A stretch of 64,000 nucleotides of DNA, taken from Campylobacterota bacterium. GTDB taxonomy: Bacteria; Babelota; Babeliae; Babelales; RVW-14. The position numbers and the translations under genes were made by a program. The notes beneath the pieces are model-generated. The model had not been told where the DNA came from, searched no databases, and saw nothing but the letters and a program-made list of their open reading frames with translations. Below are positions 1-19,703 of this stretch, piece after piece (position 1 is the first letter of the stretch; the number at the start of each line of letters is the position of its first letter). The DNA lies in NCBI GenBank assembly GCA_020633995.1, contig JACKCO010000003.1, positions 73,503 to 137,502 of the forward strand, written 5' to 3'.

Positions 1-2261
1 GCTCATTTGGCTTGGCCGCAGGTGGCAACACAGTCGTCTGCATTGATGGCAATGGTATTTATCGACGTACAGGCATAACAGCACAAAATCCTGGGGGTAC
101 AGGGTGGAGCAAAACCGCAGCAAATACATTGCGATACATCTCTGTTGGATCAAATGGTGATATCTGGGCATCAAACGTTGGTGGCATGGTCTACTATATT
201 GCAGCTGACACCCTGGATAATCCAAAGTTTGAACAGATTTCTAACCTTAAAAAGGGCAAAGTGCAAAGAGGCGTTGGTGCTCAGGTAGCAATGTACAAAT
301 TATCTGTTAGCGGACCTCAACTTACACCAAAACCTGGGCAAAGACCTATCACAATGGCAGCAGCGCAATCAAGACAACAAACGCCCGCCACTGCAGTAAG
401 CTTACAGCTGCCACCGAATCAAACAGCGGCAATACAGCTTCAAGGCCAAGATCAAACACCTGCACAGCAGCCTGACCCTGCCTCGAAACCGGCACAAACT
501 CCAACTGATGCTGATCAAGAACCAGCTCAAAAGCAAAGCCAAGATCAAACACCTGCACAGCAGCCTGACCCTACCTCGCAACCAGCACAAACTCCAACTG
601 ATGCTGATCAAGAACCAGCTCAAAAGCAAAGCCAAGACCAAACGCTTGCACAGCAGCCTGACCCTACCTCGCAACCAGCACAAACTCCAACTGATGCTGA
701 TCAAGAACCAGCTCAAAAGCAAAGCCAAGACCAAACGCTTGCACAGCAGTCTGACCCTGCCTCGCAACCAGCACAAACTCCAACTGATGCTGATCAAGAA
801 CCAGCTCAAAAGCAAAGCCAAGATCAAACGCTTGCACAGCAGTCTGACCCTGCCTCGCAACCAGCACAAACTCCAACTGATGCTGATCAAGAACCAGCTC
901 AAAAGCAAAGCCAAGATCAAACACCTGCACAGCAACCTGATCTTGCCTTGCAACCAGCACAAACTCCGGCATTGCCAATAGCCATATCAGCTCTTGATAA
1001 GGAAATTGAAAACGTCAAACAAGAAAAAGCTGATGTTGAACAGGAACTTAAAAATTTAGCCACAAAACATACTACCCTTGAAAAAAAACTCGTAGGACTA
1101 AATGCGCTCATTGCTCAACGCCGTGGCGAACTTAAAAAACTCAAAGCCGACATCACAGCTGCCGAAAAAAGATTAACTGAATTGACCGCAAAATATGAAG
1201 GTGATATTGCAGCAAAAGAGGCCGCTATTACCGAGTTACAAAGTGATGCAACAGCAACACAAGCTAAACTTGATAGTATAGCTGCACAAGCTGCACAACT
1301 AAGCAGACAAGAAGATTTATTGGCACTTGAGAAAAACCGACAAATACTTACGCAAAGACTGAACGCTATCGACTTTGCTAATGCTCAAGAGCTGGAAGCG
1401 GCTCGAACCGAATTAATGGCAAAGCTAAAAGAATTACAAGATATGAAACAAACTCAAGAGAATGCAGACGAACAACAACTCATAGCCATTAATGGCCAAC
1501 TGCAGTCCTTTGGCACGATGCTTGCCAATGTTGAGCAAGCAATCCAAACACTAGAGCAAAAACAAGATGCCTTAAAAACAGAAATAACCCCTACACAAAC
1601 AGCACAAACTGAAGCTACTCCCCAAGCAACAGAGGAAGCAACCACGCTTGTAGAAACCACACAACCAACAACCCTAACTCCCGCTCAATCAACAGCGACA
1701 GAAACAATCCCGGCAATAACTCATGCTGAAGAAAGTACAAAACAAGCAGCTCCTAACACCATGCCACAAACACAACCACAAACTGTAACTACCCAGGCTG
1801 TCGCTGCTGTTCAAGAAACCGCTACACAAAATACGACAACGACACCTGAAGCGTTTTCATTTACTGATGGAACAGGTCTTGAACTCGGCCAGGAATATGA
1901 TCCAACCGCCATTCCAACCCTTGCGGTCATGCCTGAACAATCAGATTTTATTATTGTCGAAGAATATGAAACTGATCCTGTTACCGGTCAAACCGTCGTA
2001 CGTAAACGTCTTGCCCGCAGACCTGAACGAGGCAGACAAGCGACAACAACGCCGACAGAAGCAGAACAAGTAATACCTCAGACTACCACAGGACGAGCTC
2101 GTACATCGCGTAGGCAAGCCCAACCTACCCAGGCAACAAGGGCTACACGGGGAAGACAGACAACACAACAAGCAACACGTCGTGAACCAACCCGACAACC
2201 ATCACGACGACAAACGCAGCAACCAACCCAACGACAACAAAGAAGTAGAACTAGATCTTAA
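1..2261 (+). CDS. 5-prime-truncated exported tectonin-repeat / coiled-coil protein with Arg-rich C-terminal tail
   Basis: The frame is open from the window edge, so the TTG at 12 is only an ORF-caller start. The first ~60 aa carry tectonin-type blades (GIYRRTGITAQNPGGTGWSK, NGDIWASNVGGMVYY). These are followed by 5.6 copies of a 31-aa tandem repeat, an A/E/K/L/Q heptad-rich segment (~aa 325-530) and a T/Q/P-rich spacer. The last ~85 aa are R/T/Q/S-rich (..TRGRQTTQQATRREPTRQPSRRQTQQPTQRQQRSRTRS). Confidence 0.85.
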   Translation, partial: SFGLAAGGNTVVCIDGNGIYRRTGITAQNPGGTGWSKTAANTLRYISVGSNGDIWASNVGGMVYYIAADTLDNPKFEQISNLKKGKVQRGVGAQVAMYKLSVSGPQLTPKPGQRPITMAAAQSRQQTPATAVSLQLPPNQTAAIQLQGQDQTPAQQPDPASKPAQTPTDADQEPAQKQSQDQTPAQQPDPTSQPAQTPTDADQEPAQKQSQDQTLAQQPDPTSQPAQTPTDADQEPAQKQSQDQTLAQQSDPASQPAQTPTDADQEPAQKQSQDQTLAQQSDPASQPAQTPTDADQEPAQKQSQDQTPAQQPDLALQPAQTPALPIAISALDKEIENVKQEKADVEQELKNLATKHTTLEKKLVGLNALIAQRRGELKKLKADITAAEKRLTELTAKYEGDIAAKEAAITELQSDATATQAKLDSIAAQAAQLSRQEDLLALEKNRQILTQRLNAIDFANAQELEAARTELMAKLKELQDMKQTQENADEQQLIAINGQLQSFGTMLANVEQAIQTLEQKQDALKTEITPTQTAQTEATPQATEEATTLVETTQPTTLTPAQSTATETIPAITHAEESTKQAAPNTMPQTQPQTVTTQAVAAVQETATQNTTTTPEAFSFTDGTGLELGQEYDPTAIPTLAVMPEQSDFIIVEEYETDPVTGQTVVRKRLARRPERGRQATTTPTEAEQVIPQTTTGRARTSRRQAQPTQATRATRGRQTTQQATRREPTRQPSRRQTQQPTQRQQRSRTRS
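447..968 (+). repeat. In-frame 93-bp tandem repeat, 5 full copies plus a partial one (31-aa unit QDQTPAQQPDPxSxPAQTPTDADQEPAQKQS)
   Basis: Direct reading gives units starting at 447, 540, 633, 726, 819 and 912, nearly identical at nucleotide level with a few substitutions (P/L, P/S, T/A). Stop-free ORFs in several other frames (402-962 -, 508-981 +, 664-978 -) are a side effect of the repeat. Confidence 0.95.
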
Positions 2262-2299: not shown

Positions 2300-5200
2300 A
2301 TGCAAGCATTATTTCGTACCAAAAAATTCCAGGCCGTGCTCCTTGGCGCACTAGGTCTGCTTCTTTTGGGCACTGCCTACGTCAAAGGCGAAGCGCAGGT
2401 ACAACTGACCGCTGCAAGTGGTTCTGCCATAGATTTTTTGTATGATCGTTATGGCGCACGACTTGTTGTTAACGGACCCGTCAAGTACGGTGATGTTGTT
2501 CGCCTGGTCTCAGAAAACAAGAAAAGTAATACGGATGATCCATCGGTACCATTCGGCTCCAAAAAAATACGATACAATGGTCGAGACATCGCGCTTCACC
2601 ACACCGGACTCAAGTACGGACCATTTCAACCAATACCGTTGGGTCAGGTTTCTGGTAACATTGCCCAGGATATGAAAGATTTTTGGATTGTTAAGCCGCC
2701 ACACGGCAAGACGCTTGATGATGTTTCTCCCGAATCAAATAAACCATACAAGCAAACTGACGTAACCTCAGGAAGCACTATTCGTCTGACACATCTAACG
2801 ACACAAACAAACTTGCACTCAAATGCAGGTGTACAAGCACCAGATAGAGAGAACCAACAAGTTGCGACTTCCGGAAAAGATGGCATTGGCGATACTGGAG
2901 ACAACTGGGTACTTGAAATTGATGGTGGTAGTGTATGGGATAGAGCAACAAGCACCGTAAAACTCAAACATAAGAGAAGTGGTAATTACCTTTTCTTCCC
3001 AGGAACCACGTGGAACGCTGGTTACTACTCAACCCAAGACACCGGCTATCATTACATTACAGCTGCAGCTCCAGAAAGTGACATTACAAACAATTCTCAC
3101 ATCCTAAAATTTAAGATCGAAGAAGAAGATCTTGCTGGCCTCCCTGCAGAATTTAACTTGGTTGATGACGCCTCAACACCAGCCATTATCTATGGCCAAC
3201 CAATTCAAATTGCAAACTCGTATAGAAAAGAAAATGGTAAAGATATTTACCTACATAGAACGGGCATGAAATTTTCAACGTTTGATCGACGAGGTTCTTC
3301 GCCAGATGATGAACAGGTTACCGCTTCGTTTAAAGACGATGATAAAGACTTTTGGGTAATTTTACCAGCAAATGGCATGAGCCTTGACAGTACACATCCA
3401 AAGTCTGGCAAACCATATTCTCAAAGCCCTATTTATAATGACGACGTCGTTCGCATTCAACACCAGGGCAGCGGCAAATATCTCACATCACTGATTGGCA
3501 TTGAAGCACCCTTTCCCGCTGATCTTTATCAGATTATTACCACGACTGATCAAGATGACGATAAAAATAACTTTGTCATTGGCCTAACAGGCAAAACAGC
3601 CGATGATGTTTGGCGCACAGGGTTTAATGGCGTAAGCTTTAGGCACGCTCAAACCAACAATACACTTTTCTTTCCTGGTGACAAATTCAATATTTTCTTC
3701 TGGCCATGGATCAAAAATACCATACCACGCCAAACAACACTTATGCCTCACGAAGAACACTTCATTGTTGCAGGAATACGCACACCTGACCTTTCAAGAA
3801 TGATGGGTAATCCAGACCTTAAATCGATTGCACTAACCCACCTTTTCCAAGCAAAAATAGGAGAAGGCGACTTGAAGCGACTTGCAGAACTTGAGCTCAA
3901 ACGCAAAGCAGCAGAAATTCCACCGCTACAAGAATCTGTTATTGGTGTAAACGGCCACACATGGGCACTTACTGTCGATGATGCACCAGACTCACCAGGG
4001 AACAAACGTGTGTATCATAAACCTACTGACGAATGGATTGAGGTCACTGGTAGAGCTCTCAAACAAATAGCTGTAGGACCGAACGGTCAACTTTGGGGTG
4101 TCAATACTGACGACGACATCTATGCGCGCGAAGGTATTACACCTACAAGAACAATCGGCCAAAGTTGGACTAAGGTACCTGGAGCGCTTATCAACGTTAC
4201 CATCAAGGATGATGGCTCTGTAGAAGGTCTTAACAGGGATGACCTTTTCTGGGTCTCTGATTCTGGAGATTCAAAAAATCCAGAATGGCGTAACGATCCA
4301 TTTGGCTATCAACCGGATAGCTTTGTTCAAACAGTAACCGGACCTAACGGCCATGAATGGGGGCTAACCGCCAGACGTGAGGGTCCTAACTACCACGTCT
4401 ATGTTAAAAAAGATGATCGATGGATGCGTGTTAAAGATGGAGCTCTAGAGCAACTCGCAGTTGACGCAAATGGTAACATCTGGGGTAGAAACAACGAAAA
4501 CACTATCTTCTACCACGCTTTTGACATTCCAGACAGCGGACAACCAAACTGGATCAACGTAGCCGGCGCACAACTAACTCGTGTGGATATTGATAGTACA
4601 ACAGGTCAAGTTTCTGGACCTGGCGTTGATGGCGAACAATATATTTCTCAAACGGGCGATCCTAGAGATCCACAATGGATCACCGAAACGGAATTGAAAC
4701 GTCGTAAAGAAGACGCCGAACTTAAGAAGACAGAAGAGGCTGAACCTAAGACAGAAACAGAAGAGACTAAACCCAAGAAAGTAGAAGCTATCGAGAAGAA
4801 GGTGGAAGAAGTCGCACGTAAAGCCAGAGAAGCAATACTCAGCGAGGCAAAAACAGAACTTGGTACTCTTACAGCCAGCCGAGATGCTCGACAAGCAAGC
4901 GTAACAACACTTGAAGGTGATGTTAAGGCAAAAAGCTCAGAACTGAAATCCCTCGAGGCCGAAATCAAACGTGAGCAAGCACGCCTTGATGGCTTACTCA
5001 AAACAATCGAAGCTGAAGAAGACAAACTTGGTGGCGAGCTGGACAAACTCAACGAAGCACTTGCAGCAGAAAGAAAACGTCTAGGTGAACTTGAGGGCGA
5101 ACTTAAAGGTGAACAAGCAAAACTCAGCCAAGCTCAAGAGCGTACACAAAAACGAATTTCAGTAGAAAATCGAGAGTTAATTATCAATCGCCTCACAGAA

Positions 5201-6160
5201 CAAAAACTCTTAACACAAGAACAGTTTGCAACTTCACAACAAGCAATTCAAAACAAAATTGCAGAGCTAGACAAGATACAGAGCGATCAGGCAACAAGAG
5301 ACCGAACAGCACTCACTAATATCTTAAATCAACTACAGGCACTTACTCCTGCAATGGAAGGCATCCAAGAAAAAACTGAAGCCATAACTGGCAAGCAAAC
5401 GACCATAACAGAACACATGCAAGAGCTTGACAAGAAAAAGGTTGCAGCCGAGGAAGAAGCGGTTACACAGCAAGCTGAACAACCTACACCTTCAACCACG
5501 GAGCCAGCAGCACAACCAACGCCTCAAGCACCAATACAAACAAATGTCATATCAGAGCCAACAGCAACAGAAGCAACAACCCCTGACACACCGGTTCAAG
5601 CAGCTGTAGAACAAGAAGCTACAACCGAGCCAACAACAGAAGAAATAGCAGCACCCGCTGCTACAGTTCCCGCAGTCGCTGCAGCACGCACAAGACGTGG
5701 TAGAGTAACTCGCACCCCGGCCACGACAGAGACTGGCGCTGATACCACAAGCGAGCAACCGGCACAACCGACAGCAACAACACGTAGAGGGCGAACCTCA
5801 CGCAGTCCTGTTGCAGGGGCAACCAGAACACGTGCTGCCACAGCGCGCCGAGGCAGGCAAGCAGTCTCAACAGATGACCCAGCGCAAGCAGCAGTCGCTC
5901 AAAGTGATTCAGCAACCCCGACCCGCGGTAGAGCAACCCGTAGCAGAGCCACCCAAACGACCGGTACTGCTACAACACGTAGAACCCGAGCAACGGGCAG
6001 ACAAGCGGTAGCTCAACCAGCTGGCGCAGCAACAACTCGTCAAGCAGCCCGTAGCCGAGGCGGCGCTCGTAGACAAACAGCTGACCAACAACCAACCAGA
6101 AGACAAGCACGCACTCGTCAAGCCACAGAACAAACAACACGAAGAAGCAGAACCAGATAA
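2300..6160 (+). CDS. Exported MIR-like / tectonin-repeat / coiled-coil protein with long Arg-rich tail (1286 aa)
   Basis: The ATG follows an AAAGGGAGA RBS. The signal peptide is KKFQAVLLGALGLLLLGTAYVKG. There are two beta-trefoil MIR-like triplets (YGDVVRLVS / STIRLTHLTTQTNLHSN / VKLKHKRSGNYLFFPG and YGQPIQIAN / VVRIQHQGSGKYLTS / VSFRHAQTNNTLFFPG). Tectonin blades span ~3940-4680 (GQLWGVNTDDDIYAREGITP..GQSWTKVPG). A heptad coiled coil spans ~4680-5460, followed by a T/P/A/E spacer and a ~155-aa R/T/A tail from ~5686 with recurrent TRRGR/TRGRATR. Confidence 0.9.
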   Translation: MQALFRTKKFQAVLLGALGLLLLGTAYVKGEAQVQLTAASGSAIDFLYDRYGARLVVNGPVKYGDVVRLVSENKKSNTDDPSVPFGSKKIRYNGRDIALHHTGLKYGPFQPIPLGQVSGNIAQDMKDFWIVKPPHGKTLDDVSPESNKPYKQTDVTSGSTIRLTHLTTQTNLHSNAGVQAPDRENQQVATSGKDGIGDTGDNWVLEIDGGSVWDRATSTVKLKHKRSGNYLFFPGTTWNAGYYSTQDTGYHYITAAAPESDITNNSHILKFKIEEEDLAGLPAEFNLVDDASTPAIIYGQPIQIANSYRKENGKDIYLHRTGMKFSTFDRRGSSPDDEQVTASFKDDDKDFWVILPANGMSLDSTHPKSGKPYSQSPIYNDDVVRIQHQGSGKYLTSLIGIEAPFPADLYQIITTTDQDDDKNNFVIGLTGKTADDVWRTGFNGVSFRHAQTNNTLFFPGDKFNIFFWPWIKNTIPRQTTLMPHEEHFIVAGIRTPDLSRMMGNPDLKSIALTHLFQAKIGEGDLKRLAELELKRKAAEIPPLQESVIGVNGHTWALTVDDAPDSPGNKRVYHKPTDEWIEVTGRALKQIAVGPNGQLWGVNTDDDIYAREGITPTRTIGQSWTKVPGALINVTIKDDGSVEGLNRDDLFWVSDSGDSKNPEWRNDPFGYQPDSFVQTVTGPNGHEWGLTARREGPNYHVYVKKDDRWMRVKDGALEQLAVDANGNIWGRNNENTIFYHAFDIPDSGQPNWINVAGAQLTRVDIDSTTGQVSGPGVDGEQYISQTGDPRDPQWITETELKRRKEDAELKKTEEAEPKTETEETKPKKVEAIEKKVEEVARKAREAILSEAKTELGTLTASRDARQASVTTLEGDVKAKSSELKSLEAEIKREQARLDGLLKTIEAEEDKLGGELDKLNEALAAERKRLGELEGELKGEQAKLSQAQERTQKRISVENRELIINRLTEQKLLTQEQFATSQQAIQNKIAELDKIQSDQATRDRTALTNILNQLQALTPAMEGIQEKTEAITGKQTTITEHMQELDKKKVAAEEEAVTQQAEQPTPSTTEPAAQPTPQAPIQTNVISEPTATEATTPDTPVQAAVEQEATTEPTTEEIAAPAATVPAVAAARTRRGRVTRTPATTETGADTTSEQPAQPTATTRRGRTSRSPVAGATRTRAATARRGRQAVSTDDPAQAAVAQSDSATPTRGRATRSRATQTTGTATTRRTRATGRQAVAQPAGAATTRQAARSRGGARRQTADQQPTRRQARTRQATEQTTRRSRTR

Positions 6161-6179
6161 CATAAAGAAGTAAAAAAAA

Positions 6180-6206
6180 GGTGGGTAGAATTTAATTCTA
6201 CCCACC
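6180..6206 (+). terminator. Strong intergenic hairpin (11-bp perfect stem ggtgggtagaa / ttctacccacc), possible terminator or attenuator
   Basis: Stem 6180-6190 pairs with 6196-6206 around a 5-nt loop, 20 nt after the stop at 6160. It is flanked by A-runs rather than a downstream T-tract, so it is not a textbook intrinsic terminator. Confidence 0.45.
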
Positions 6207-6225
6207 TAAATAAAAAAGGGGAACC

Positions 6226-6987
6226 ATGTTGCACTTTATAGCGCCCTCCAAACAAGCTCCACGCTCTCTAAAGATCGGGCCTCTTATTCTCGTAATCTTT
6301 TCTCTGCTTGTACTGCAAACTTCAAAAGCGGCCATCGCTGACGATATTAGTGCGCTACAAAAGCAACTTACGCAACTAAAACAAGACTACGAGAGTGCAA
6401 TGATGTCTCTACAAGGCCTAGTTGACAATCGGGTTGCACAACAAATTCCAAATTTCACTCAGCCATTTGAAGCACAACTTGTACAACTTAACGCAGAGCT
6501 TGACGCTCTCATTCCTACCTTAGCAGAGCAAGTAACACCCGCTATCAAACAAAAAGTACAAGATATTATTAGCGATGAAATTAACACCCATATCCAAAAC
6601 AGTGTCGATCAGTCGGTAAATAGTGCATTTTTAAACGAATTCCAAGGAACTATTGATACCGAAGTGCTAGGACAAGTTAGGCAAATTGTGCAAGAACGCA
6701 TAGAGCCAATATTGCAGGACGTCCAAGCTATACAGGCAACACTTACACCTGAGTCAGCATCCACAGTTGATATCACAACTCCTCAGCGTGCACAGCAGGC
6801 TCGTGGTCGCGGTCGTGCTCCTCGTGCAACGCGCACGTCTGGACGCGTAAGAACGGCTCCACAAGGTCGTGAGGACAGAACGACGTCCCGCGCTAGAGCA
6901 CAAGTCCAACCTACACGCTCGACAACTCGCAGCACTGAACGACAAACAACATCTACAGACCGTACTCGTCGCAGTCGGGGATCTTAA
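6226..6987 (+). CDS. Small exported coiled-coil protein with Arg-rich tail ('headless' stalk-tail protein, 253 aa)
   Basis: The RBS is AAGGGGA. There is an N-terminal hydrophobic signal/anchor (LKIGPLILVIFSLLVLQTSKA). The Q/L/E-rich helical region is homologous to the C-terminal stalk of the 3805-aa protein (QDIISDEINT vs EQIISDELNT). The last ~65 aa are R/T/S-rich (RGRGRAPRATRTSGRVRT...RTRRSRGS). Confidence 0.85.
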   Translation: MLHFIAPSKQAPRSLKIGPLILVIFSLLVLQTSKAAIADDISALQKQLTQLKQDYESAMMSLQGLVDNRVAQQIPNFTQPFEAQLVQLNAELDALIPTLAEQVTPAIKQKVQDIISDEINTHIQNSVDQSVNSAFLNEFQGTIDTEVLGQVRQIVQERIEPILQDVQAIQATLTPESASTVDITTPQRAQQARGRGRAPRATRTSGRVRTAPQGREDRTTSRARAQVQPTRSTTRSTERQTTSTDRTRRSRGS

Positions 6988-7127
6988 ATATAGTGGAGGT
7001 AGTACAATTAAATTATTTCTTATTTGAAAATATTGACTTATAGGGAACTGTCTGTGATAAAGTGATATTAGAGCCTTTATAATTGATACAATATACGTAA
7101 AAAAACCGTATACTTAGGGGGAACAGA

Positions 7128-8201
7128 ATGAACGCCTACAAACTCATTCAAGTAAAATTGGCAAAAAGTTTATTATTTTTTGCCCTGCTTATTGCAGGAT
7201 CATCACAACTTGCCTTCGCCGCAGAGGCAGAAGAAACAGTTGCAGTCACGCCTGAACAAGTAGTTACAGAACAGCTTGCAAAGCAGAATTTGGCAACAGG
7301 AGCAGACGTTGATGGACTTATGAATAATGTACTTGCCAATTTAAAAGAAGCTGGGCAAGCACCAGAGGTTCAGTCAGATCAATTGAAAGCTGTCTTTGAT
7401 CAACTTAACTCCTTCAATAGCGCAGTCGGAAACATCGCCCAAGCAATAAAACAAATAGATGAATCACAAAAAGCAATCGAACAACAGGTTAACACCATTC
7501 GGCAACAACAAGAAGAAAAAAAAGGTGGCCGTATGGAAAGGTTTGCACAGCGTATGACCGAGCAAGCAGAACCAGGTGTTACTGAGACGGCAACCGGGCA
7601 AACCCCGACCGAGCCAACAACCGCAACTCAAGTAGCGCAGGTAGCGCAAGCTCAACGAGGTCGCGCATCACGCCGTGCAGGCGGAGTCGCACGAGGCAGA
7701 CGAGGTGAACCTACACCTGCAATCGTCCAGGCAGATCAAGCAGCCGATCAAACGGCGGGTCAAGCAGCTGCAGCTCCAGTAGCGACAAGAGGCCGTGCTC
7801 GAGTTACACGCGGTGCCACAACAAGACAAGCAGCGGCCGGCACACCAACACGCCGCGGAGCTAGAGGCACTCCAGCCGCTAGTCCAGCACAACCTGCAAC
7901 AACCCAGGAAGCAGCAGCTCCAGCTACCCCGACACGAGGCAGAGCAACACGCGCAGCAGGCGCAGCTCCAACAGCCAGTCGTGCAACACGTGGGCGAGCT
8001 ACACGGGCCGCTGGTGCAGTCTCACCTACTCGAGGCCAAGCAGCAGGCAGACAAGCAGCAGCTGATGCAACACGAGCCACACGCGGACGTCAAGCTCAAG
8101 CAAGTGGCGTACCACGTACCCGTCAAGCCGGACAAACTCGTCGCCAGGCAGCAGCTGGCGGTGGTGGAGCTCGTCAAACAAGAGCAACAGCACGTGGATA
8201 A
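7128..8201 (+). CDS. Exported coiled-coil protein with ~180-aa Arg/Ala/Thr/Gly tail (357 aa)
   Basis: The RBS context is CTTAGGGGGA. The signal peptide is LLFFALLIAGSSQLAFA. A short helical Q/E-rich region is followed, from ~7654, by a low-complexity tail with repeated TRGRATRAAG / TRGRARVTRG / TRRGARG units running to the stop. Confidence 0.85.
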   Translation: MNAYKLIQVKLAKSLLFFALLIAGSSQLAFAAEAEETVAVTPEQVVTEQLAKQNLATGADVDGLMNNVLANLKEAGQAPEVQSDQLKAVFDQLNSFNSAVGNIAQAIKQIDESQKAIEQQVNTIRQQQEEKKGGRMERFAQRMTEQAEPGVTETATGQTPTEPTTATQVAQVAQAQRGRASRRAGGVARGRRGEPTPAIVQADQAADQTAGQAAAAPVATRGRARVTRGATTRQAAAGTPTRRGARGTPAASPAQPATTQEAAAPATPTRGRATRAAGAAPTASRATRGRATRAAGAVSPTRGQAAGRQAAADATRATRGRQAQASGVPRTRQAGQTRRQAAAGGGGARQTRATARG

Positions 8202-8285
8202 ATTTTTTTTAGATTAAAAAAGTTAAATAACTCATTTAAAAAAATAGATTTTAATTTAGTTACTACCTGAGGGGGGGAGTAAAAA

Positions 8286-11200
8286 ATGAAGCAGTCGATC
8301 GGAGGCACGATTGTAGTAAAAATACAATCGACAGTGTTCTGGTCGATTGCTTTTTTACTATTTACGCTGCATGGAACTACAAACGCAGCAAGTATAAAAT
8401 ATGGCGATCGAGTAAGAATACACTTCTCAAGTAAAACTAACACATCTGGCAGCGGAAAGGTATATCTCAGCGGTTCATCAGACTCAAAAGCATTTGCTAG
8501 CGAGGCAACATCTACTGCAAGCGACAACTGGATTATTGAAGGAGGAACTGTTGGCCAAGCCGTAACGACAGGAAACATTATACTTAAACATGAATCAACC
8601 GGAAAATATCTTGCAGAAAACCAAGCCAATCAACTCAACTTCGGTCTTCCTGGCTTCTTTTTTGAAGTAAGACTGCAAAGCTCAACATTCAACTGGTTTG
8701 TTTATAGCGACGGAGGCAGCAACGCTCTTGACAGCACAAAGCGTTTTTTACTTTCTCCTGGTGGAAACCAATCTGCCTATAGACTCGGAATATCAAACTC
8801 ACTTTATTCTTCAAGCGATCCCAAAAAATATATTATCACAAACTATCATCATGGCTACGGCGCTAATCCATTTGGAACATTTCCATGGCTTAGCACTGAA
8901 GCTGCTTTACCGCCGGCTGCACCTGCACCAGCGCCTGCTCCCCAGCCAGTGCCTGCTCCAACATCTGGCACCATTTATGGTAACGTATGGGGTATAGGAC
9001 CGACTAATAAAGTATATTTTCGTGAGGGTATTAGTAACGCTAATCCAACCGGCACGTCATGGTCTGAAGTCACTGGACTTTTAGCAAGCAATATCACAGT
9101 AGGACCTGATGGAAGAGTATGGGCACTAAATACGACTGCAGTTGAAGGAGGACATCAAGTTTATTACCGTGAAGGGATCACTGCATCTAACCCCAAAGGA
9201 ACTAGTTGGTCAAGAGTTGATGGTGGTTTAGCTCTGCTGGCAACAGGCCTTGGAGGACAATTATGGGGCGTTAACAACAGTGACAATTTATTTTTCCGTC
9301 AAGGCATAACATCAGGTAACCCTAAAGGAACATCATGGCAACATGTAAACCCATATTTTAAATATATTGATGCAGGCTCAGATACATACAACAGCGTTTG
9401 GGCAACCGGATCGTATCCCGGCGTTGTTTATCGACATTGGGGCAACACCACAACCCAGCCAGGCACAACTTGGTCTCCTGTAGAAAGTTATGAAATCAAG
9501 CAAATCGCAGTTGGCCCTAATGGTCAACCGTGGGGTATAAACGCGAGCAACGAAGTTGTCGCTAGAACAGGTATAACAGGCCAACAAAAAGATGTTAAAG
9601 GTACTGGCTGGCAAGCATGTGCTACTGGTGCAAAATTTGTTGGGGTAACTCGAAGCAACCAAGTATGGATGGTCAAAAATGATAACTCCATATGGGTATC
9701 TGAAACGGCCGATATGAATAATATGGCATGGCAACAAATAGACGGCTCACTGACAAAAGTTAGTGGTGGCGGCATGCCAGCGGGCTATGTACCCGGACCT
9801 TCATATCCTAGCGATGAAATACAATACGGTCAGGACATCCGTCTTGTTTGGTCAACATATCCCACAGCAGAAGTTGCTATCTCCGCATCTGCGGAAGGAA
9901 AACCATTTGGCAGCACTACAAAAACAAGCAACGATATCTGGACAATTCTTCCAACAAGCGGACAGACTGGAGTAGTAAAGCATGCTCATCAGTTTTATCT
10001 CAGACACAAAAATACTGGAAAATTCCTCTGTTACAATGGTAGCAACGCCACGCTTGATGATGGAAATCCTACTTTAAGTATTGTAATTGATAGCATGCAA
10101 AATGGACAACACATTGATACATCAGATCAACAAAACATACCATGGCTCAAAAATTATGACCGCATTGCTATCAGAACACCATCTCCCATTCGTGATTTTT
10201 TCTACTTTCCGGGAACAAAGTATACCAACCAACTCGGCCAGCAATACAACGCAGCTTGGACGTTTATAGAAAACGCACAAAAGGAACAATATTTTCCCTT
10301 TTTCAAAGCAACACCAACCACAGGACTTTCAACTCCACCTGAACCACAACCCGCACCACAGCCAGCACCTGAACCACAACCTGCACCTACCCCAGTAAAT
10401 CCTACCGACAATGTGTGGGCTGTATCTGAATCTGATGGTAAAGTCTGGTTTAGAGAAGGTGTAACTGCAACAAAACCTGAAGGTACAAGTTGGACTGAAA
10501 TCCCGGGCCTACAAGCCCGATGGATCAACGTCAGTCCCCGTGGAGAAGTATGGGCTACTACAAGAACTTCTAGCCCCGTCCCCTATTACCGTACTGGCAT
10601 TACACCTGAAAACCCAAAAGGTACCAGCTGGACTCTAGTTGACGGTGGCAATATCATGCAAATCGGTGCTGGCCTAGAAGGACAACTCTGGTGCAAAACC
10701 TACCTAGGAGAACTTTTTTACCGCACGGGAATTACCGAACAAAATCCTACGGGTAATGGATGGACAAAAATCACAGACGGCAATGTAAATGCCTATCGTT
10801 TTGCTGTAGGCGCGAATGGTGCCGTTTGGGCAACCGACTCTAACCAAGAGGCAGGTACAGGCTTTAGACCGGTATACAGAACAGGAGTCACCACAAGCAG
10901 CCCTGGTGGTACCGGTTGGCAAACTGTTACTGACGGCTTTAACGTCTCAGCCGATCTTGCCGTTGGCCCACAGGGACAACTCTGGACCATTAACACCGTA
11001 TTTCAAGCATCTGCACGCTTGGGCATTACTCCATCAAACCCTCTGGGCACATCATGGAGTAACTACTTTACCGGCATGAACTCATCACTTATGTCAGTAT
11101 CACCTAACAACAATCTCTGGCTGATTAATAGAAGTAATCAAATCTTTATTGCAAAAGACCCAACGCCTGGCTCTCCTTCATTTACTGGTGTGGGAGGTGC

Positions 11201-17200: not shown

Positions 17201-19703
17201 TACTACACCTGAGGGTAATAAAATTTACACGCCAACAAACAATCCACAAAATCCTGAGTGGCGTCCCGTCGTTCCACCTCTGCAACCTCCACAAACAGAT
17301 CCAAACGGCAACAAGTGGGCACTCAGCCAAGGTGACTCTCCTGACTCTCCAGGCAACAAAGAAATTTTCTTTCAATCGCAAGACAGTGATCAGTGGAATA
17401 AACTTAGTGGAAACTTAATTGATATTGCCATTCATCCAACAGGTGGACAAGTCTGGGGCGTTAACGCAAACAACGATATTTTTGCTCGAGAAGGCATAAG
17501 TTCTGCAGACCGCTCTGGTACAGGTTGGACAACAGTGTTTGGCAAACTTAAAGATATTTCAATCATCACATTCCAAAATGAACCACATTTTGGTGGTACT
17601 GATATCAACGATCGAATAATCTTCTCACAAACCGATAATGCACAAAATCCTGAATGGACACAACTTTCCCAAGCAGAACAAGAGGCACTCAACAATGCAG
17701 AACTAGAGAGAATCAGTAGCCTACTGCCACCGCCTGCTGAGTGGGTCATTGACGGACGCAATAATGCATGGGCACTCAGTATGCAAGCTGACGACAATGA
17801 TAACCGAGAAATCTTCTTCAAAGGCACTAATAACATGTGGACAGCCCTTGACGGACAAAAACTTGCAGCACTTGTTGCAGATACTACCAATGTTTGGGGG
17901 ATCGACAGCACAGCAAATATTTATACACGACAAGGTATAACTGATCAACTCCCACAAGGAACCAATTGGCTCGTTGTTCCTGGCCAACTAACCGAAATTC
18001 ATTTTGATCCAACCAACAACGAAATTTGGGGGATAACTCCTGATGGTGAAGAAGTTATTTCACAAACCAATAATCCACAAAATCCTGATTGGCGACCAAG
18101 TATCCCGCCGCTACAAAACGAGCAAACTGATCCAAACGGCAATACATGGGCTCTCAGCAAAAATGATGATCCTGACAATCCTGGCAACAAGGAAATCTTC
18201 TTTAAACCTCAAGGTGGCAACAAATGGATAAAGGTTAATGGAGGCTTAATAGGATTGGCAGTTCATCCAACAGATGGACAAGTATGGGGCGTTGACGCAA
18301 ACAATACTATTTTTGCACGTGCTGATATAGGACCTGCTCAAACGCAAGGAACCGAGTGGCTACCGGTTTCCGGTAAACTCAAGGACATTTCGATTATTAC
18401 ATTCCAAAACAACCCACACTTTGGCGGAAACAATCTCAATAATCAAATTATTTTCTCACAAACTGATGACGCAGACACCCCACAATGGACACTGCTTTCT
18501 CAAGCTGAGCAAAAGGCACACACACAAGCAGAACAAGAACGAATCAATAGCCTGCTACCATCACCAGCAGAATGGATCATTGACGGACGCAACAACACAT
18601 GGGCATTGAGTACGCAAGCTGACGACAATGGAAATCGTGAAGTATTTTTCAAAGGGCTGGACAATGTATGGCTCTCGATTCCAGAACAAAAACTTGCAGC
18701 ACTTATTGCAAATCCTGACAATGTCTGGGGTGTGGACGGTGCAGCAAATATTTATACACGACAAGGTATAACTGATCAGCTCCCTCAAGGCACCAACTGG
18801 CGTATCATTTCAGGACAGTTGACTGAAATTCACTTTGATCCAACCAATAATGAAATTTGGGGAATAACTCCTGAAGGAAGAAGAGTCGCCTCACAAACAA
18901 ATAATCCACAAGATCCTCAATGGAAAGTAGTGCCAACACCTGAAGAAGCCAGCGCACAAGAACTTAGTCAACTCACCAAAGAGCTCAACGAACTAAGAAA
19001 CAGAATTAACAATTTGGGCACAACGGTTAACACTGCCACAGACGGTGCTATAACCAATAAACTCCCAGCAGAACAAAATCAATTGCAAGATCAATTTAAT
19101 GCGCTCTACGACAAGCTAGACAGCCTCGCGCCAGCAGTTGAATCAAGCATCAAACCTATGCTGGAACAAATAATTAGTGATGAGCTTAATACTCAACTCT
19201 TGGACCCCGCACTACCACAAATAATAAACCAAACAACTATTGATACAATCAGAAAGAAAGCAATTGACAGTATCAGCCAACCACTCTCTGAGCAAATCAA
19301 TCAAGCAATAGACAGCGGAATAGATCAAGCACAGCAAGCCATCGCTCCATTTATCCCAGATGAATCAGTCATAGAAGAACCTGCAAGCACTCCCGAACCA
19401 GAATTAGAAACAGTAGAACGAGCGCGAGGTCGTCGTCCACGTCCTACACGTACTCGTAGACGCGCCGCTGCTGAACCAGAAACAGAGCGCGCCATTCGTC
19501 AAGTTGGAAGTGAAATGCTTCGAGAACGAGATAGACAACTACCTGAGATTGTAACGAGAGAACAAAAAGCGCTACAGCAAACAAGTTTCAGACAAGCACT
19601 CCCAGAAGCTGGGCCACGCCAAGATCAACAGGACACAAGCATCTTGCAACAAAAACAAGCAAAACCCACAACTCCAGTGCGCCGTACTCGTGGCCAACGA
19701 TAA
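8286..19703 (+). CDS. Giant exported multi-lectin-like protein (3805 aa): beta-trefoil/MIR-like, dozens of tectonin blades, FAMeT-N-like beta-sandwiches, C-terminal coiled coil, Arg-rich tail
   Basis: The RBS is GAGGGGGGGAG. The signal peptide is VFWSIAFLLFTLHGTTNA. Trefoil-like segments start at IKYGDRVRIHF, IQYGQDIRLVW and IKYGDKVVLGI (with IRLKSIPTNLFLHSHADRN). PAPAPAP / PEPQPAP linkers are present. Tectonin blades recur throughout, matching GxxWG(V/I)Nxxxx(I/V)(F/Y)xRxGITxxNPxG(T/S)xW. FAMeT-N-like modules lie at ~11340-12330 and ~15250-15690 (LHVNLGPDKNNTHGQMYEILVGANNN; IAIGLSPIDRTLPGNMYQLSIGGDNNTSTFI). The coiled coil spans ~18940-19400, and the basic tail starts at ~19420 (RARGRRPRPTRTRRR ... 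PVRRTRGQR). Confidence 0.9.
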   Translation: MKQSIGGTIVVKIQSTVFWSIAFLLFTLHGTTNAASIKYGDRVRIHFSSKTNTSGSGKVYLSGSSDSKAFASEATSTASDNWIIEGGTVGQAVTTGNIILKHESTGKYLAENQANQLNFGLPGFFFEVRLQSSTFNWFVYSDGGSNALDSTKRFLLSPGGNQSAYRLGISNSLYSSSDPKKYIITNYHHGYGANPFGTFPWLSTEAALPPAAPAPAPAPQPVPAPTSGTIYGNVWGIGPTNKVYFREGISNANPTGTSWSEVTGLLASNITVGPDGRVWALNTTAVEGGHQVYYREGITASNPKGTSWSRVDGGLALLATGLGGQLWGVNNSDNLFFRQGITSGNPKGTSWQHVNPYFKYIDAGSDTYNSVWATGSYPGVVYRHWGNTTTQPGTTWSPVESYEIKQIAVGPNGQPWGINASNEVVARTGITGQQKDVKGTGWQACATGAKFVGVTRSNQVWMVKNDNSIWVSETADMNNMAWQQIDGSLTKVSGGGMPAGYVPGPSYPSDEIQYGQDIRLVWSTYPTAEVAISASAEGKPFGSTTKTSNDIWTILPTSGQTGVVKHAHQFYLRHKNTGKFLCYNGSNATLDDGNPTLSIVIDSMQNGQHIDTSDQQNIPWLKNYDRIAIRTPSPIRDFFYFPGTKYTNQLGQQYNAAWTFIENAQKEQYFPFFKATPTTGLSTPPEPQPAPQPAPEPQPAPTPVNPTDNVWAVSESDGKVWFREGVTATKPEGTSWTEIPGLQARWINVSPRGEVWATTRTSSPVPYYRTGITPENPKGTSWTLVDGGNIMQIGAGLEGQLWCKTYLGELFYRTGITEQNPTGNGWTKITDGNVNAYRFAVGANGAVWATDSNQEAGTGFRPVYRTGVTTSSPGGTGWQTVTDGFNVSADLAVGPQGQLWTINTVFQASARLGITPSNPLGTSWSNYFTGMNSSLMSVSPNNNLWLINRSNQIFIAKDPTPGSPSFTGVGGAPSPLTVISAGGYPGTIQTQTLPPPDPDKYFLYDPASTPNKYDNKTYRDAWKLPEANRGIIQFRARGLNDLHVNLGPDKNNTHGQMYEILVGANNNAASYLKKQKVVPPFLSPVNASQFPQAVLEGGKPSGQGDIWNDFWIIVDQQFILVGKGTSPGIPEEIILWHQDPYPHTVNYFGLGGWDARVEFDNIRVAPLTNPPKITDLTKYTRAPNTQTIWEKADLKYHPNWKLPVQGSGSITFRAKAANNIIVSIAPGLSSFTQGDIPPDYDGATYFFNFGASNNTLSGLYKNNIDSAPIEFNNSANARINNANAFEDYWISVEPDGTLRAGKGSPGNAPLITHKDANFANNILQVGFGGKGATTVEFTNITFGQPLEIVPEISPQEQAQSIKYGDKVVLGIHSSVANLTKGKPNSLVVIATGSGEVNPWYKDQQVAYGWESATNLSEFTVLASHEEGDNARLGQAVRAGDTIRLKSIPTNLFLHSHADRNTWSSDTPPSIKLQEVTGYPNRDSNDNWELIVKDNSYSYWNKAAEVTLRHKATQKYLHVIDYRWWWGPGGTDAWALAYSVGAKDAPIQQYFITNEGRALFEQQQIREKLQPEGQWIIDRHGNTWGTTDTDHPQSAGNKELYFRKAGQENWEPIAGAITMLAAHPQKDQVWAINKDGSIFARLNVTSGNPQGNSWAGVPGNLTQIAINQDNHFAGTDSANKVYFSPTDDPGNPSWMLLLPPLQQSDTRPWELSIDDHPLFTGNKRVFFNTQNGWIEIEGAMKQLARRSNGHVWAIKNDNSIYFREGVNTQNPMGSSWKPVAGSLTSIGVNQQDTIIGTNQLGDNIFSLTNDPNNPQWRNVVPPLQEPYVVGPQGHTWALSVNDHTEFPGNKRIFHKLPDQWIEIDGALKKLAVGTNGQVWGINSTNTLFSRDGITAQNTAGSGWIVVPGNLKDILFDSQNNQFIGINEFDEDVISQTSDPNNPAWIPFLQTPDGRWTLSDVDHKNSLNNKYTFFKENNGLWNLVEGALSQISVSPNNEVWGIQANGNVFTRQEITPQNLKGSSWLQVPGQLSEIAVGNDGIVYGKTLANKGVFLANEDLANPLWLEVLPALQQSNTRPWELSQADHPLVPGEKRIFYNLGDKWVEVGGTLKQLVLRPNGDVWGINSEHEIYFRDGITQQNPLGTDWVVVPGKLADIRLDGNGTINGTTPEGQDVYSITNNPIDPAWRNLTPPLQSPVTGPDGHTWALSIADHPQSPGDKRIFFQEQDTSWSEVDGALKQISVGPGGQVWGTNINNQIFYRNGVTEQNPKGTDWIQTPGICTVCTINPDGFVTGITPDGDTIIFNGNFTNPNWVPADSLHNYDPDKQTPGSLTFKPEWGLPQPSRGNVLFKAKAQASIAIGLSPIDRTLPGNMYQLSIGGDNNTSTFITDGTSNRLQSTNNQEALIDNQNVFIPYWVTVYDDTIVVGRGVIPGENEFFRYQDQSPVQNLTNVGLGGLQNPVEFKDISIIAATKPTLLLPPLQTPITDPTTGSTWVLSEDDDPSNPGNKQIFFKHQDSDEWNKIEGSLTALAIHPTSGQIWGINANNDILARNGITAQNPAGTSWSTIQGKLKTIEIITFGTMPHFGGTNLNDQSIFSQTDAPNNPAWIELKQAQQQAAQEAEQKRINDLLPPATEWIPDTRGNNWALSTQQDSTGNREVFFQHAGQLWQALPDTPLKNLIVDNNGNLWAITGNSTVYTRDGITDQTPQGTTWTQIPGALEQINFEQDKNLVAGITPDQQGVYSQTGTPQNPAWIPYLNPVNNRWALSRDDHPAQPGNKRIFFKENNNLWTEIDGTLSQMSVGNNNQVWGVDNNSNVFTREGITPENLKGTNWKQVPGKLTTIDIDNDGIIFGTTPEGKEIYLANDDLQNPVWLEILPPLQQSDTRPWELSQADYPGYPGDKRVFYELPDGWTEVGKTPLKKLVVTPNAQVWGINNNGDTFYREGITTQNPTGTGWGTIPRKFVDIELDKNNNIVGTTPEGNKIYTPTNNPQNPEWRPVVPPLQPPQTDPNGNKWALSQGDSPDSPGNKEIFFQSQDSDQWNKLSGNLIDIAIHPTGGQVWGVNANNDIFAREGISSADRSGTGWTTVFGKLKDISIITFQNEPHFGGTDINDRIIFSQTDNAQNPEWTQLSQAEQEALNNAELERISSLLPPPAEWVIDGRNNAWALSMQADDNDNREIFFKGTNNMWTALDGQKLAALVADTTNVWGIDSTANIYTRQGITDQLPQGTNWLVVPGQLTEIHFDPTNNEIWGITPDGEEVISQTNNPQNPDWRPSIPPLQNEQTDPNGNTWALSKNDDPDNPGNKEIFFKPQGGNKWIKVNGGLIGLAVHPTDGQVWGVDANNTIFARADIGPAQTQGTEWLPVSGKLKDISIITFQNNPHFGGNNLNNQIIFSQTDDADTPQWTLLSQAEQKAHTQAEQERINSLLPSPAEWIIDGRNNTWALSTQADDNGNREVFFKGLDNVWLSIPEQKLAALIANPDNVWGVDGAANIYTRQGITDQLPQGTNWRIISGQLTEIHFDPTNNEIWGITPEGRRVASQTNNPQDPQWKVVPTPEEASAQELSQLTKELNELRNRINNLGTTVNTATDGAITNKLPAEQNQLQDQFNALYDKLDSLAPAVESSIKPMLEQIISDELNTQLLDPALPQIINQTTIDTIRKKAIDSISQPLSEQINQAIDSGIDQAQQAIAPFIPDESVIEEPASTPEPELETVERARGRRPRPTRTRRRAAAEPETERAIRQVGSEMLRERDRQLPEIVTREQKALQQTSFRQALPEAGPRQDQQDTSILQQKQAKPTTPVRRTRGQR
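17268..18930 (+). repeat. Two tandem ~831-bp (277-aa) intragenic modules; a third, more diverged copy lies at ~15700-16540
   Basis: Copy 1 (17268-18098) and copy 2 (18099-18930) both read PPLQxxQTDPNGNxWALSxxDxPDxPGNKEIFF ... HPTxGQVWGVxANNxIFAR ... ISIITFQNxPHFGG ... LSQAEQ ... LLPxPAEWxIDGRNNxWALS ... IYTRQGITDQLPQGTNW ... EIHFDPTNNEIWGITP. Long identical nucleotide runs are visible, for example acacgacaaggtataactgatca. Confidence 0.85.

Follow-up and report, generated by a model that had tools for sequence, protein, structure and literature searches.

Two head-less stalk-tail proteins as candidate exported partners of modular lectin-like proteins in a bacterial gene array

In the 64-kb stretch of DNA analysed here (the window), the best explanation for two genes, C and D, is that they are functional and that their putative Sec-exported products are paralogues, lacking a head, of the modular lectin-like proteins encoded next to them. 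As a whole, this reading is held tentatively, at a little less than an even chance. Each head-less protein has one specific head-bearing relative of its stalk in the same-strand gene array, namely E for C and A for D. The first-pass annotation had described both proteins as lacking a head, and the Pfam and NCBIfam searches bore this out, with nothing above threshold and only a Sec-type signal peptide, a stalk and an Arg-rich tail recognizable in either protein. The neighbours A, B and E contain MIR, Tectonin/Hyd_WA and Methyltransf_FA domains, and no Tectonin, MIR or Methyltransf_FA domain was found in C or D by Pfam, even at E <= 0.1.

Integrity of genes C and D and their upstream sequences

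The two open reading frames listed in the first-pass annotation were recovered at the same positions (Table 1), and the ORF check and independent assemblies showed that they are intact, separate genes. Window positions 5692-8750 are 100 % identical in two independent Logan assemblies, SRR12358675 and SRR12358676, and genes of 253 and 357 aa were also called on both. An AGGGG(G) Shine-Dalgarno sequence lies 4-5 nt 5' of the ATG in C and D, and a G-run motif likewise precedes E. The divergence between C and E is old (28 % identity), yet both ORFs are intact. Thus, based on the identical assemblies and gene calls, the Shine-Dalgarno sequence of each gene, the codon bias of the tails (see below) and the old divergence with intact ORFs, we conclude that C and D are real genes.

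The hairpin in the spacer between B and C has an A-run on its 5' side and no U-tract on its 3' side on the + strand. Its RNA fold has an energy of -21.3 kcal/mol (z -5.4, 0/200 shuffles), and it occurs only once in the 64-kb window. The promoter-like site upstream of D is one of a number of such sites in the region that is not above the shuffled expectation.

Table 1. Positions of genes C and D, their parts and related segments of A and E in the window.
Feature	Position	Strand	Properties and basis
Gene C, ORF	6226-6987	+	253 aa
Gene D, ORF	7128-8201	+	357 aa
Perfect 13-bp hairpin, B-C intergenic spacer	6179..6207	+	sequence scan
C Shine-Dalgarno-like AAGGGGAA	6216..6223	+	4 nt upstream of ATG; read from sequence
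C residues 1-35, Sec-type signal peptide	6226..6330	+	probable cleavage between SKA and AI, by eye
C residues 36-187, acidic helical stalk	6331..6786	+	net -14, pI 4.1; homologous to E 3548-3712
C residues 188-253 + stop, disordered polyarginine tail	6787..6987	+	29 % R, 0 % K, 20 % T
D promoter-like GTGATA-18-TATAAT	7054..7083	+	10/12 consensus positions; consensus match only
D Shine-Dalgarno-like AGGGGGA	7116..7122	+	5 nt upstream of ATG; read from sequence
D residues 1-31, Sec-type signal peptide	7128..7220	+	probable cleavage between AFA and AE, by eye
D residues 32-136, acidic stalk	7221..7535	+	net -7, pI 4.5; similar to A ~421-535
D residues 137-176, acidic T/P/A/Q/E-rich linker	7536..7655	+	composition; comparable linkers in A, B
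D residues 177-357 + stop, Arg/Ala/Thr/Gly-rich tail	7656..8201	+	net +29, pI 12
A residues ~421-535, end of long coiled coil matching D stalk	1272..1616	+	ORF cut by window start
E residues 3548-3711, stalk homologous to C stalk	18927..19418	+	sequence comparison
E residues 3712-3805 + stop, tail	19419..19703	+	composition

Stalks and their head-bearing relatives

The pairwise alignment of C with the end of the 3805-aa protein E was significant, both by BLASTP (41 bits, E 8e-9, 33/118 identical) and by Smith-Waterman, with a score of 122-130 as compared to a mean of 41-47 (sd ~8) for shuffled sequences, 0/1000 of which reached the real score. Shuffles that preserved a period of 4, 7 or 11 gave the same 0/1000 outcome. 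A reversed-sequence control scored 79, since the periodicity of coiled coils inflates such scores. The alignment is collinear, joins residues 29-186 of C to residues 3548-3720 of E at 28 % identity, and covers the stretch LDALIPTLAEQ.../LDSLAPAVESS... quoted in the first-pass annotation. Of the correspondence claimed there, between C and the C-terminal ~250 aa of E, the significant part is the ~160 aa of the stalk, and the tails match in composition only.

The putative pairing of the D stalk with A, read from the sequences, is a new result of this analysis. The Smith-Waterman score was 103-112 (z 7.8-9.3, 0/1000 shuffles) and the BLASTP match was modest (27 bits, E 1e-5), scores of this kind again being raised by coiled-coil periodicity, with both stalk pairs in the range of ~26-28 % identity. 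The heptad cores share their register in both pairs. For D and A, the core residues are L L V I Q V and L L L I Q I at position a, and V F I I I I and I F V L L at position d, respectively, such that a buried Gln and a core Phe fall in matching heptads. No similarity between C and D themselves was detectable. A single stalk family for A-E was rejected, as the cross-profile matches were marginal (in a database of 22 proteins, the C/E profile matched D at 6e-4 and the D/A profile matched B at 0.008). Homology outside the tail to the family of signal peptide-head-tail proteins (A, B, E, F and M-R) is hence provided by the C-E match, and more weakly by the D-A match.

Both stalks had been labelled as coiled coils, which fits D and, in C, would fit ~35 residues only, the remainder of the C/E stalk having a period of four. 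Taking a period of ~3.5 over at least four heptads without proline as canonical, residues 84-134 of D form a canonical heptad coiled coil with 79 % hydrophobic residues at positions a and d. The hydrophobic period is 3.45 in residues 83-135 (0/300 shuffles) and 3.45-3.5 for the D helix overall. AF2 was run on single sequences and returned helix and disorder, with low confidence for C and moderate confidence for D. In the model of D, residues 82-146 are predicted as a helix with confidence, the block-mean pLDDT being 82-93 for residues 101-140. In C, the heptad-like part is limited to residues ~35-68, where the period of 3.65 is not significant (28/300 shuffles). Residues 84-173 and the corresponding stretch of E show a period of 3.9-4.05 interrupted by prolines, including 15 consecutive x-hydrophobic-x-x tetrads in residues 106-165 of C. 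The C model contains helices at residues 18-128 and 135-173 (pLDDT ~51-73), at a mean pLDDT of 56 that represents low confidence. We conclude that most of the C/E stalk, with its period of four and its prolines, is not a canonical oligomerising coiled coil. Sequence searches of the PDB with C and D gave only weak matches to amphipathic helices (TIP47 0.0024, dynamin 0.14).

An exhaustive HMMER search with the C/E stalk profile against 1.84 billion representatives returned C, E and unrelated tetrapeptide-repeat proteins only, the non-self matches being P0006 at 3.9e-10 and P0011-13 at ~1e-4. These proteins (xAVx/DSVx; DUF6745, Mrr_cat) share with C and E the four-residue hydrophobic period and a 'QP(V/L)' punctuation, but have unrelated architectures, no signal peptide and no Arg tail. 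The likeness is one of repeat pattern and does not speak for a shared origin, and the xAVx/DSVx repeats are covered by no Pfam family or known structure. In word-seeded searches of 5.8 billion proteins, C retrieved itself only, as did B, for which the search was swamped by low-complexity words. Pattern scans gave no match for C in GTDB genomes, for the C/E stalk and the M-R head domain in JGI metagenomes, or for the head domain and the D stalk in IMG/VR. Overall, no homologues of C or D outside this metagenome-assembled genome were found in the databases searched, and a literature search on Dependentiae, tectonin or MIR with Arg tails found nothing specific.

Signal peptides, anchors and arginine-rich tails

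The signal peptides and cleavage sites of C and D were read by eye. For C, the reading is MLHFIAPSKQAPRSLKIGPLILVIFSLLVLQTSKA followed by AIADD after cleavage, with a basic n-region (K9, R13, K16) and the hydrophobic core IGPLILVIFSLLVL; the top 10-residue Kyte-Doolittle window averages 3.46 and starts at residue 21. For D, it is MNAYKLIQVKLAKSLLFFALLIAGSSQLAFA followed by AEAEE. The combination of a hydrophobic segment and an AxA-like site at the N-terminus, by manual reading, is as in the family A, B, E, F and M-R. The host cell is diderm, with TolB, TolA-like and TolQ encoded in the window, and no secretion system is visible within the window.

Motif, hydropathy and Pfam scans led us to reject LPXTG, lipobox, transmembrane and barrel anchors for C and D. 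Neither protein has an LPXTG motif, a lipobox or any Cys; no 19-mer exceeds a Kyte-Doolittle mean of 1.1, and no transmembrane segment was found. There was no Pfam match to a YadA-type beta-barrel in C or D, whose C-termini are disordered and polybasic, and none to anchor domains in C, D or the head-bearing neighbours examined. Attachment of the family to a surface, if any, would be non-covalent and electrostatic.

The tails of C and D follow the family pattern of an Arg-rich, Lys-poor and non-hydrophobic C-terminus, with only 3-6 % hydrophobic residues. The C tail has a net charge of +15 and a pI of 12 and ends in RTRRSRGS, and the D tail contains repeated TRGRATR-like motifs. D had been described as more than half tail, which agrees with the Arg-rich residues 177-357 making up 51 % of the protein, or 62 % with the linker from residue 137 included. 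A span of D from residue 125, longer than the Arg-rich part, contains 16 % R and 1 % Lys. Across the family, the tails are very variable in length (47-181 aa) and contain 16-34 % R. That of E has basic clusters at both ends (RARGRRPRPTRTRRR ... PVRRTRGQR) with a mixed middle between them. The tails of C and D are disordered in the AF2 models (pLDDT <50 in C). Every family member is a charge dipole, with a body of pI 4.1-5.4, and the tails of both C and D have a pI of 12.

When the window was read in six frames for ORFs of 60 aa or more, exactly 11 had an Arg content of 20 % or higher over the final 40 residues. All 11 are family genes on the + strand, and a hydrophobic, signal-like start was present in 10/10 complete ones. 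In total, 12 proteins of the window have Arg-rich tails, and every complete one has a signal peptide. The tail codons display a third-position bias like that of the heads (G3 0.06-0.15) and a similar avoidance of CGG/AGG; the tails are truly coding. Arginines are found 2 or 3 positions apart more often than expected (z 3.1 and 6.7, respectively), whereas directly adjacent RR is depleted (z -4.9). RGR and TRGR are enriched as well (z 5.6 and 6.1), and RRSR is not significantly so (z 1.3). No DNA-level repeats are shared between tails and no tandem DNA repeat lies beneath the D tail, and recent DNA copies or tandem repeats were rejected as their origin. The enrichment of spacings and motifs without shared DNA repeats suggests that the tail is under selection for its pattern and is not a recent copy. 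An AT-hook was rejected, as its RGRP core is missing from all 11 tails examined although RGR is enriched. Comparison of the D tail with the PDB gave nothing significant, the weak matches being basic extensions of a mitoribosomal protein (E 0.12).

Proposed function and alternative explanations

After removal of the signal peptide, C and D would be charge dipoles composed of an acidic helical stalk and a long disordered Arg-rich tail. The stalk most likely drives oligomerisation, and each appears to retain the sequence and heptad register of one head-bearing neighbour (C/E, D/A). The tail, with its charge of +15 in C and +29 in D and its spaced R-x-R, R-x-x-R and RGR, most likely attaches to polyanions by electrostatic forces. 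These may belong to the anionic envelope of the cell itself (LPS or capsule), to the anionic lipids or glycans of a host, or to both. C and D would be located at the cell surface and probably act with the head-bearing members, E or A, either in mixed oligomers or at the same tail-binding sites. That they are exported, oligomerising, polyanion-binding stalk-tail proteins that partner head-bearing members is thus put forward with slightly less than even confidence. Co-assembly of C with E and of D with A would fit the sequence data, and common descent by itself would predict matched stalk cores equally well. The first-pass annotation had also suggested a minimal ancestral cassette onto which heads were grafted; this idea is without support, and it is no less likely that a full-length paralogue lost its head.

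By analogy, C and D may work as minimal 'stalk + polycationic tail' subunits in the manner of the mycobacterial heparin-binding haemagglutinin (HBHA), a small protein in which a hydrophobic N-terminus is followed in turn by a coiled coil, a linker and a cationic, heparin-binding C-terminal domain of low complexity (PMC3293801). The HBHA coiled coil oligomerises and the cationic domain binds host sulphated glycans. The likeness lies in the order of the parts and is an analogy only; D comes nearest, with a heptad coil of ~55 residues, a 40-aa linker and an Ala-rich basic tail. There is no sequence homology to C or D (no Pfam or PDB match), and the 39-aa cationic domain of HBHA is built of KKAAPA/KKAAAKK repeats, whereas the tails of C and D are Arg-based, almost Lys-free and 66-181 aa long. 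C and D also differ in having a cleavable Sec signal peptide, a diderm organism and relatives with large lectin-like heads. Another polyarginine C-terminal module on a modular surface protein is that of PE_PGRS3 of M. tuberculosis, a surface-exposed domain with 30 R in 77 aa and with cardiolipin and phosphoinositides as ligands (PMC8007152). In Arg density it is comparable with the window tails, but it belongs to another family with another export route (PE/ESX-5), has a hydrophobic C-terminal arm, is described as helical, and lacks both a coiled-coil stalk and head-less paralogues. Alternatively, the functional end may be the tail itself, as it is in HBHA or PE_PGRS3, and 'headless' would then be a misnomer.

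Streptococcal M proteins and trimeric autotransporter adhesins follow a head-stalk-linker-anchor logic, with a T/P-rich linker and beta-branched or polar residues in the stalk core. A, B and E resemble such fibrillar adhesins in this logic and in the T/P-rich linker between coiled coil and C-terminus; the difference is that the family of C and D has neither LPXTG with a transmembrane segment nor a YadA-type beta-barrel. A bolder proposal, which we regard as quite unlikely, is that the polyarginine tail is a new means, common to the whole family, by which a diderm displays proteins on its surface without covalent attachment. Lectin fibrils would be held on the anionic outer surface by the Arg tail alone, head-less subunits would co-oligomerise (C with E, D with A) and thereby set the stoichiometry or spacing of heads, and the period-4 'tetrad' helix would be a new stalk module.

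Several observations weigh against the stalk-tail reading as a whole, including the period of four and the prolines in most of the C/E stalk, the low confidence of the C model and the modest D-A match. In addition, the Sec pathway would not readily handle a tail charged at +15 to +29, and the signal-peptide neighbours that join the same lectin-like domains to ankyrin repeats point to host-directed effectors rather than surface fibrils. The entire tail-bearing family could be secreted effectors acting inside a eukaryotic host cell, with C and D as small effectors defined by their tail, which would serve as a nuclear or nucleolar localisation signal or as an RG/RS-like RNA-binding, phosphoinositide-binding or cell-penetrating module and not as a surface anchor. 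We consider this unlikely, with a chance that is nevertheless appreciable. The window is rich in eukaryote-like signal-peptide proteins, among them several with ankyrin repeats and one of 3011 aa that combines a signal peptide with Tectonin, Methyltransf_FA and ankyrin repeats. The C-terminus of one window protein mimics the tail of eukaryotic ribosomal P-proteins, and a social amoeba, Polysphondylium, has the nearest outside relative of the tail-proximal MIR/beta-trefoil domain. A parallel is found in the protist parasite Chromulinavorax, where 44 % of all proteins and 78 % of ankyrin proteins have signal peptides and are read as secreted effectors (PMC6561590). The regular Arg spacing and the RGR and RG enrichment resemble nucleic-acid-binding tails, in line with the mitoribosomal matches of the D tail, which are not significant. 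However, the heads consist of lectin-type propellers and trefoils and reach 3800 aa, and in combination with T/P-rich linkers and long coiled coils they have the look of extracellular fibrils or adhesins. The canonical AT-hook is also absent (RGRP, 0 times).

The tail has further been considered as a C-terminal signal for sorting or secretion, into outer-membrane vesicles or through a dedicated exporter, with C and D as small cargo, which we judge very unlikely. In its logic, such a signal would be comparable to those of VirB/D4 type IV substrates, which are C-terminal and positively charged. Signal peptide and tail occur together in all complete ORFs (10/10), and the extreme C-termini are alike (...QRSRTRS, ...RRSRTR, ...RRSRGS, ...SRRSARYEG/K). 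Yet the tails, at 47-181 aa, are very variable and far longer than known sorting signals, the RRSR enrichment is not significant, Sec signal peptides are normally absent from type IV substrates and the window has no secretion genes. The lowest probability is given to C and D being functionless leftovers, still open, of a partial duplication or head deletion. The gene cluster does consist of rapidly diversifying paralogues, no homologue was found elsewhere, and the coding strand is T-poor, so that ORFs easily stay open, as seen from the overlapping spurious ORFs of 100-140 aa over the D tail. Against this stand the ribosome-binding site of each gene, a well-formed signal peptide joined straight to the stalk, the maintained codon bias, heptad cores and a buried polar residue kept at only ~26-28 % identity to the partner, and a tail pattern kept without DNA-level copying.

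If the stalk-tail reading is true, the proteins that this lineage secretes or displays at its surface are assembled from three interchangeable parts, namely lectin heads of a eukaryote-like type, helical stalks and a polyarginine tail. Since C and D isolate the stalk-tail unit, they would be the easiest members to express for analysis of tail ligands and stalk pairing, and an answer on these two points would explain all 12 tail-bearing proteins of the 64-kb window, including the 3805-aa giant. The wider value is modest, as these are orphan genes of one metagenome-assembled genome and polybasic adhesin tails have functional precedents. The uncultured host bacterium is probably protist-associated. 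For FtsH, the best matches among GTDB species were MAGs at 63 % identity.

Gene structure of the head-less proteins

The genes for C (253 aa) and D (357 aa), the two head-less proteins, belong to a single same-strand array, A to F, on a 728,521-bp contig of a metagenome-assembled genome, where B and C carry the locus tags H6679_00295 and H6679_00300. Both open reading frames are intact at the positions proposed in the first-pass annotation, and two independent Logan assemblies showed zero differences across window positions 5692–8750, with the same genes called there. A Shine-Dalgarno sequence, AGGGG(G), is located 4–5 nt upstream of the ATG in C and D, and likewise in E, the head-bearing giant of 3805 aa. 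Read by eye, the two N-termini are typical Sec signal peptides, with probable cleavage between SKA and AI in C and between AFA and AE in D. Pfam and NCBIfam searches found zero domains in C or D; the heads of A, B and E contain MIR, Tectonin/Hyd_WA and Methyltransf_FA domains (Pfam). The earlier description of the pair as headless, with only signal peptide, stalk and tail, is thus borne out.

Coordinates of the gene arrays and of the four-residue repeat in the window
Feature	Position (nt)	Orientation or location	Remark
Gene A	12–2261	same strand as B–F	5' part cut by window start
Gene B	2300–6160	same strand as A, C–F	
Gene C	6226–6987	same strand as A–B, D–F	
Gene D	7128–8201	same strand as A–C, E–F	
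Gene E	8286–19703	same strand as A–D, F	
Gene F	19797–20948	same strand as A–E	
Second array, M to R	30925–45250	downstream of A–F array	
Four-residue hydrophobic repeat	6541–6720; about 19140–19385	C (residues 106–165); E	

The spacer between B and C contains a perfect 13-bp hairpin (6179–6207; -21.3 kcal/mol, z -5.4), which is unique in the window. It is preceded by A8 and has no U-tract after it on the coding strand. The hairpin is not a canonical terminator of B; it may instead act in processing or stability, or terminate transcription of the opposite strand. Other-frame ORFs of 106–140 aa on both strands over the D tail (7760–8217) are spurious: they arise because the coding strand is poor in T and of low complexity, and do not point to overlapping genes. 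Within gene A, a 93-nt tandem unit is repeated 5.7 times with 96% identity (441–967), encoding a 31-aa Q/P/T/D-rich repeat between head and coiled coil that looks like a recent spacer expansion.

Relatives and anatomy of the stalks

As judged by sequence, the stalks of C and D are each paralogous to that of one head-bearing neighbour. The similarity of C to the giant E, claimed previously, is real (BLASTP 41 bits, E 8e-9): residues 29–186 of C and 3548–3720 of E are collinear with 28% identity, which in C covers the stretch between the end of the signal peptide and the beginning of the tail. The Smith-Waterman score was 122–130, as compared to a shuffle mean of 41–47 (sd ~8), and none of 1000 shuffles reached the real score, which also exceeded shuffles keeping period 4, 7 or 11; the reversed-sequence control scored 79. 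In an exhaustive search of 1.84 billion representatives, the C/E stalk profile recovered E and C at ~1e-80 and no other credible match. D appears to have a head-bearing counterpart as well, gene A, which the first-pass annotation had not reported. Its stalk can be aligned to the final portion of the long coiled coil of A (Smith-Waterman 103–112, z 7.8–9.3; 0/1000 shuffles reach the real score; BLASTP 27 bits, E 1e-5), and the a/d cores are in identical register, with Phe (d) and buried Gln (a) in matching heptads. The similarity of D to B is weak (z ~2), that of D to C is not significant, and profile cross-links between the two groups are only marginal; the stalks are therefore treated as two putative types, C/E and A/B/D.

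The periodicity of the hydrophobic residues differs between these types. A canonical heptad coiled coil (period 3.45–3.5) is present in D 84–134 and in the stalks of A and B, whereas C and E are heptad-like only in about the first 35 stalk residues, with a hydrophobic period of 3.9–4.05 in the following 90–100 residues (0–1/300 shuffles). The term coiled coil, previously applied to both proteins, is therefore correct for D and only partly so for C, where it may apply to the ~35 heptad-like residues; their period of 3.65 is not significant (28/300 shuffles). C 106–165 consists of 15 consecutive tetrads with a hydrophobic residue at position 2 (AIKQ/KVQD/IISD/EINT/HIQN/SVDQ/SVNS/AFLN/EFQG/TIDT/EVLG/QVRQ/IVQE/RIEP/ILQD). 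The non-self matches of the C/E profile were only unrelated proteins built from tetrapeptide repeats, xAVx or DSVx; neither a Pfam family nor a known fold covers these. The AF2 model of C, of low confidence, displays a helix at 18–173 followed by a disordered tail; that of D has a confident helix at 82–146, with block-mean pLDDT of 82–93 across residues 101–140.

Arginine-rich tails and their possible roles

Twelve proteins in the window have an Arg-rich C-terminal tail (16–34% R, net charge +8 to +28). Lys is almost absent from the tails of A–E, and hydrophobic residues account for 3–6% in A–D. When all six-frame ORFs with a length of 60 aa or more were screened for at least 20% Arg within the last 40 residues, exactly 11 passed, all of them family genes on the + strand, and the 10 complete ORFs all start with a signal-peptide-like segment; E, with basic clusters at both tail ends, is the twelfth. 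Third-position composition and Arg codon choice are the same as in the heads, showing that the tails are genuinely translated. An origin as recent copies was rejected, since there are neither DNA repeats common to several tails nor tandem repeats beneath them. The arginines are patterned: Arg–Arg spacings of 2 (z 3.1) and 3 (z 6.7) are over-represented, and directly neighbouring RR pairs are under-represented (z -4.9). RGR, TR and TRGR also occur in excess; the tails contain no RGRP, the AT-hook core. All members are dipolar in charge: the body is acidic (pI 4.1–5.4), and the tails of C and D have pI 12.

C and D are thus putatively exported proteins of two parts only, the acidic helical stalk and the polyarginine tail. 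The stalk would oligomerise and the tail would bind polyanions electrostatically, and these are plausibly the sole activities of the mature proteins. The tail may fasten the family members to the anionic envelope of the bacterium itself, with the heads outward, may itself be the host-binding end, or may do both and bridge envelope and host. Co-assembly with head-bearing members, proposed earlier, would fit the matched cores of C with E and D with A; such cores are also predicted by plain common descent.

A sorting signal could explain why tail and signal peptide co-occur perfectly, but the tail is far too long and too variable, which makes this quite improbable. We consider it very unlikely that C and D are functionless leftovers of duplication: each has its own ribosome-binding site and signal peptide, codon bias is kept, and cores and tail pattern are maintained at 26–28% identity. 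That the proteins are host-directed effectors, with the tail as a nuclear, nucleic-acid or phosphoinositide address, agrees with the effector-like neighbourhood, yet we regard this as unlikely compared with stalk oligomerisation and polyanion binding.

HBHA consists of a hydrophobic N-terminus, coiled coil, linker and cationic heparin-binding C-terminus (PMC3293801). Adhesins of this type, with a coiled coil plus polybasic tail, may be the closest functional likeness of C and D, although the two proteins did not test as HBHA members. A further functional precedent is the Arg-rich C-terminal domain of PE_PGRS3, a module exposed on the surface that binds phosphoinositides as well as cardiolipin (PMC8007152). 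As for classical anchors, there is neither an LPXTG motif with a transmembrane segment behind it nor a lipobox, transmembrane segment or barrel domain, and C and D lack Cys. Assignments to LPXTG proteins, trimeric autotransporters, lipoproteins or AT-hook proteins were rejected, and by sequence C and D fall into no described family. Within an orphan paralogue family, the head-less pair is a neat and verifiable trait of moderate interest; more unusual are the polyarginine tails carried across the family and the period-4 segment of the stalk.

Probable host association and effector-like proteins

The source cell is diderm, as the window encodes TolB, a TolA-like protein and TolQ. Its NCBI name, 'Epsilonproteobacteria bacterium', is doubtful, because the closest FtsH sequences among GTDB species representatives are from unclassified 'bacterium' MAGs (63% identity). 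Several ankyrin proteins with signal peptide, the amoeba-like MIR/beta-trefoil domain and the P-protein tail mimic described below make it probable that the bacterium lives in association with a eukaryotic host.

The six proteins of the M–R array, likewise equipped with signal peptide and tail, have a tail-proximal MIR/Ins145_P3_rec-like beta-trefoil of ~235 aa (30–90% identity among them), and an acidic K/E/D-rich spacer where others have the coiled coil. The best outside match of the domain (1e-25) is a MIR protein from the social amoeba Polysphondylium violaceum, suggesting a eukaryotic origin of the domain.

Eukaryotic ribosomal stalk P proteins end in a conserved peptide, …DDDMGFGLFD. A 1138-aa protein with a signal-peptide-like N-terminus (50069–53485, - strand) ends in ...EEKEEEGDMGLGLFD, which is nearly this peptide, so the protein may be an effector that imitates a motif of its host. 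Pfam detects no domain in it, and it shares an N-terminal region of ~610 residues with the adjoining ORF 46756–48462 (55% identity). In another protein, at 24602–26191, a signal peptide and ankyrin repeats are accompanied by a hydrophobic C-terminus; near its N-terminus is a stretch, LSELTKEMMGEVMSHLDTKSLGSLAQV, that is F-box-like by eye only and was not called by Pfam at E <= 0.001. In a 3011-aa signal-peptide protein (54855–63890), Tectonin and Methyltransf_FA occur together with many ankyrin repeats, and an Arg tail is absent; thus, lectin-like modules also serve effector-like architectures.
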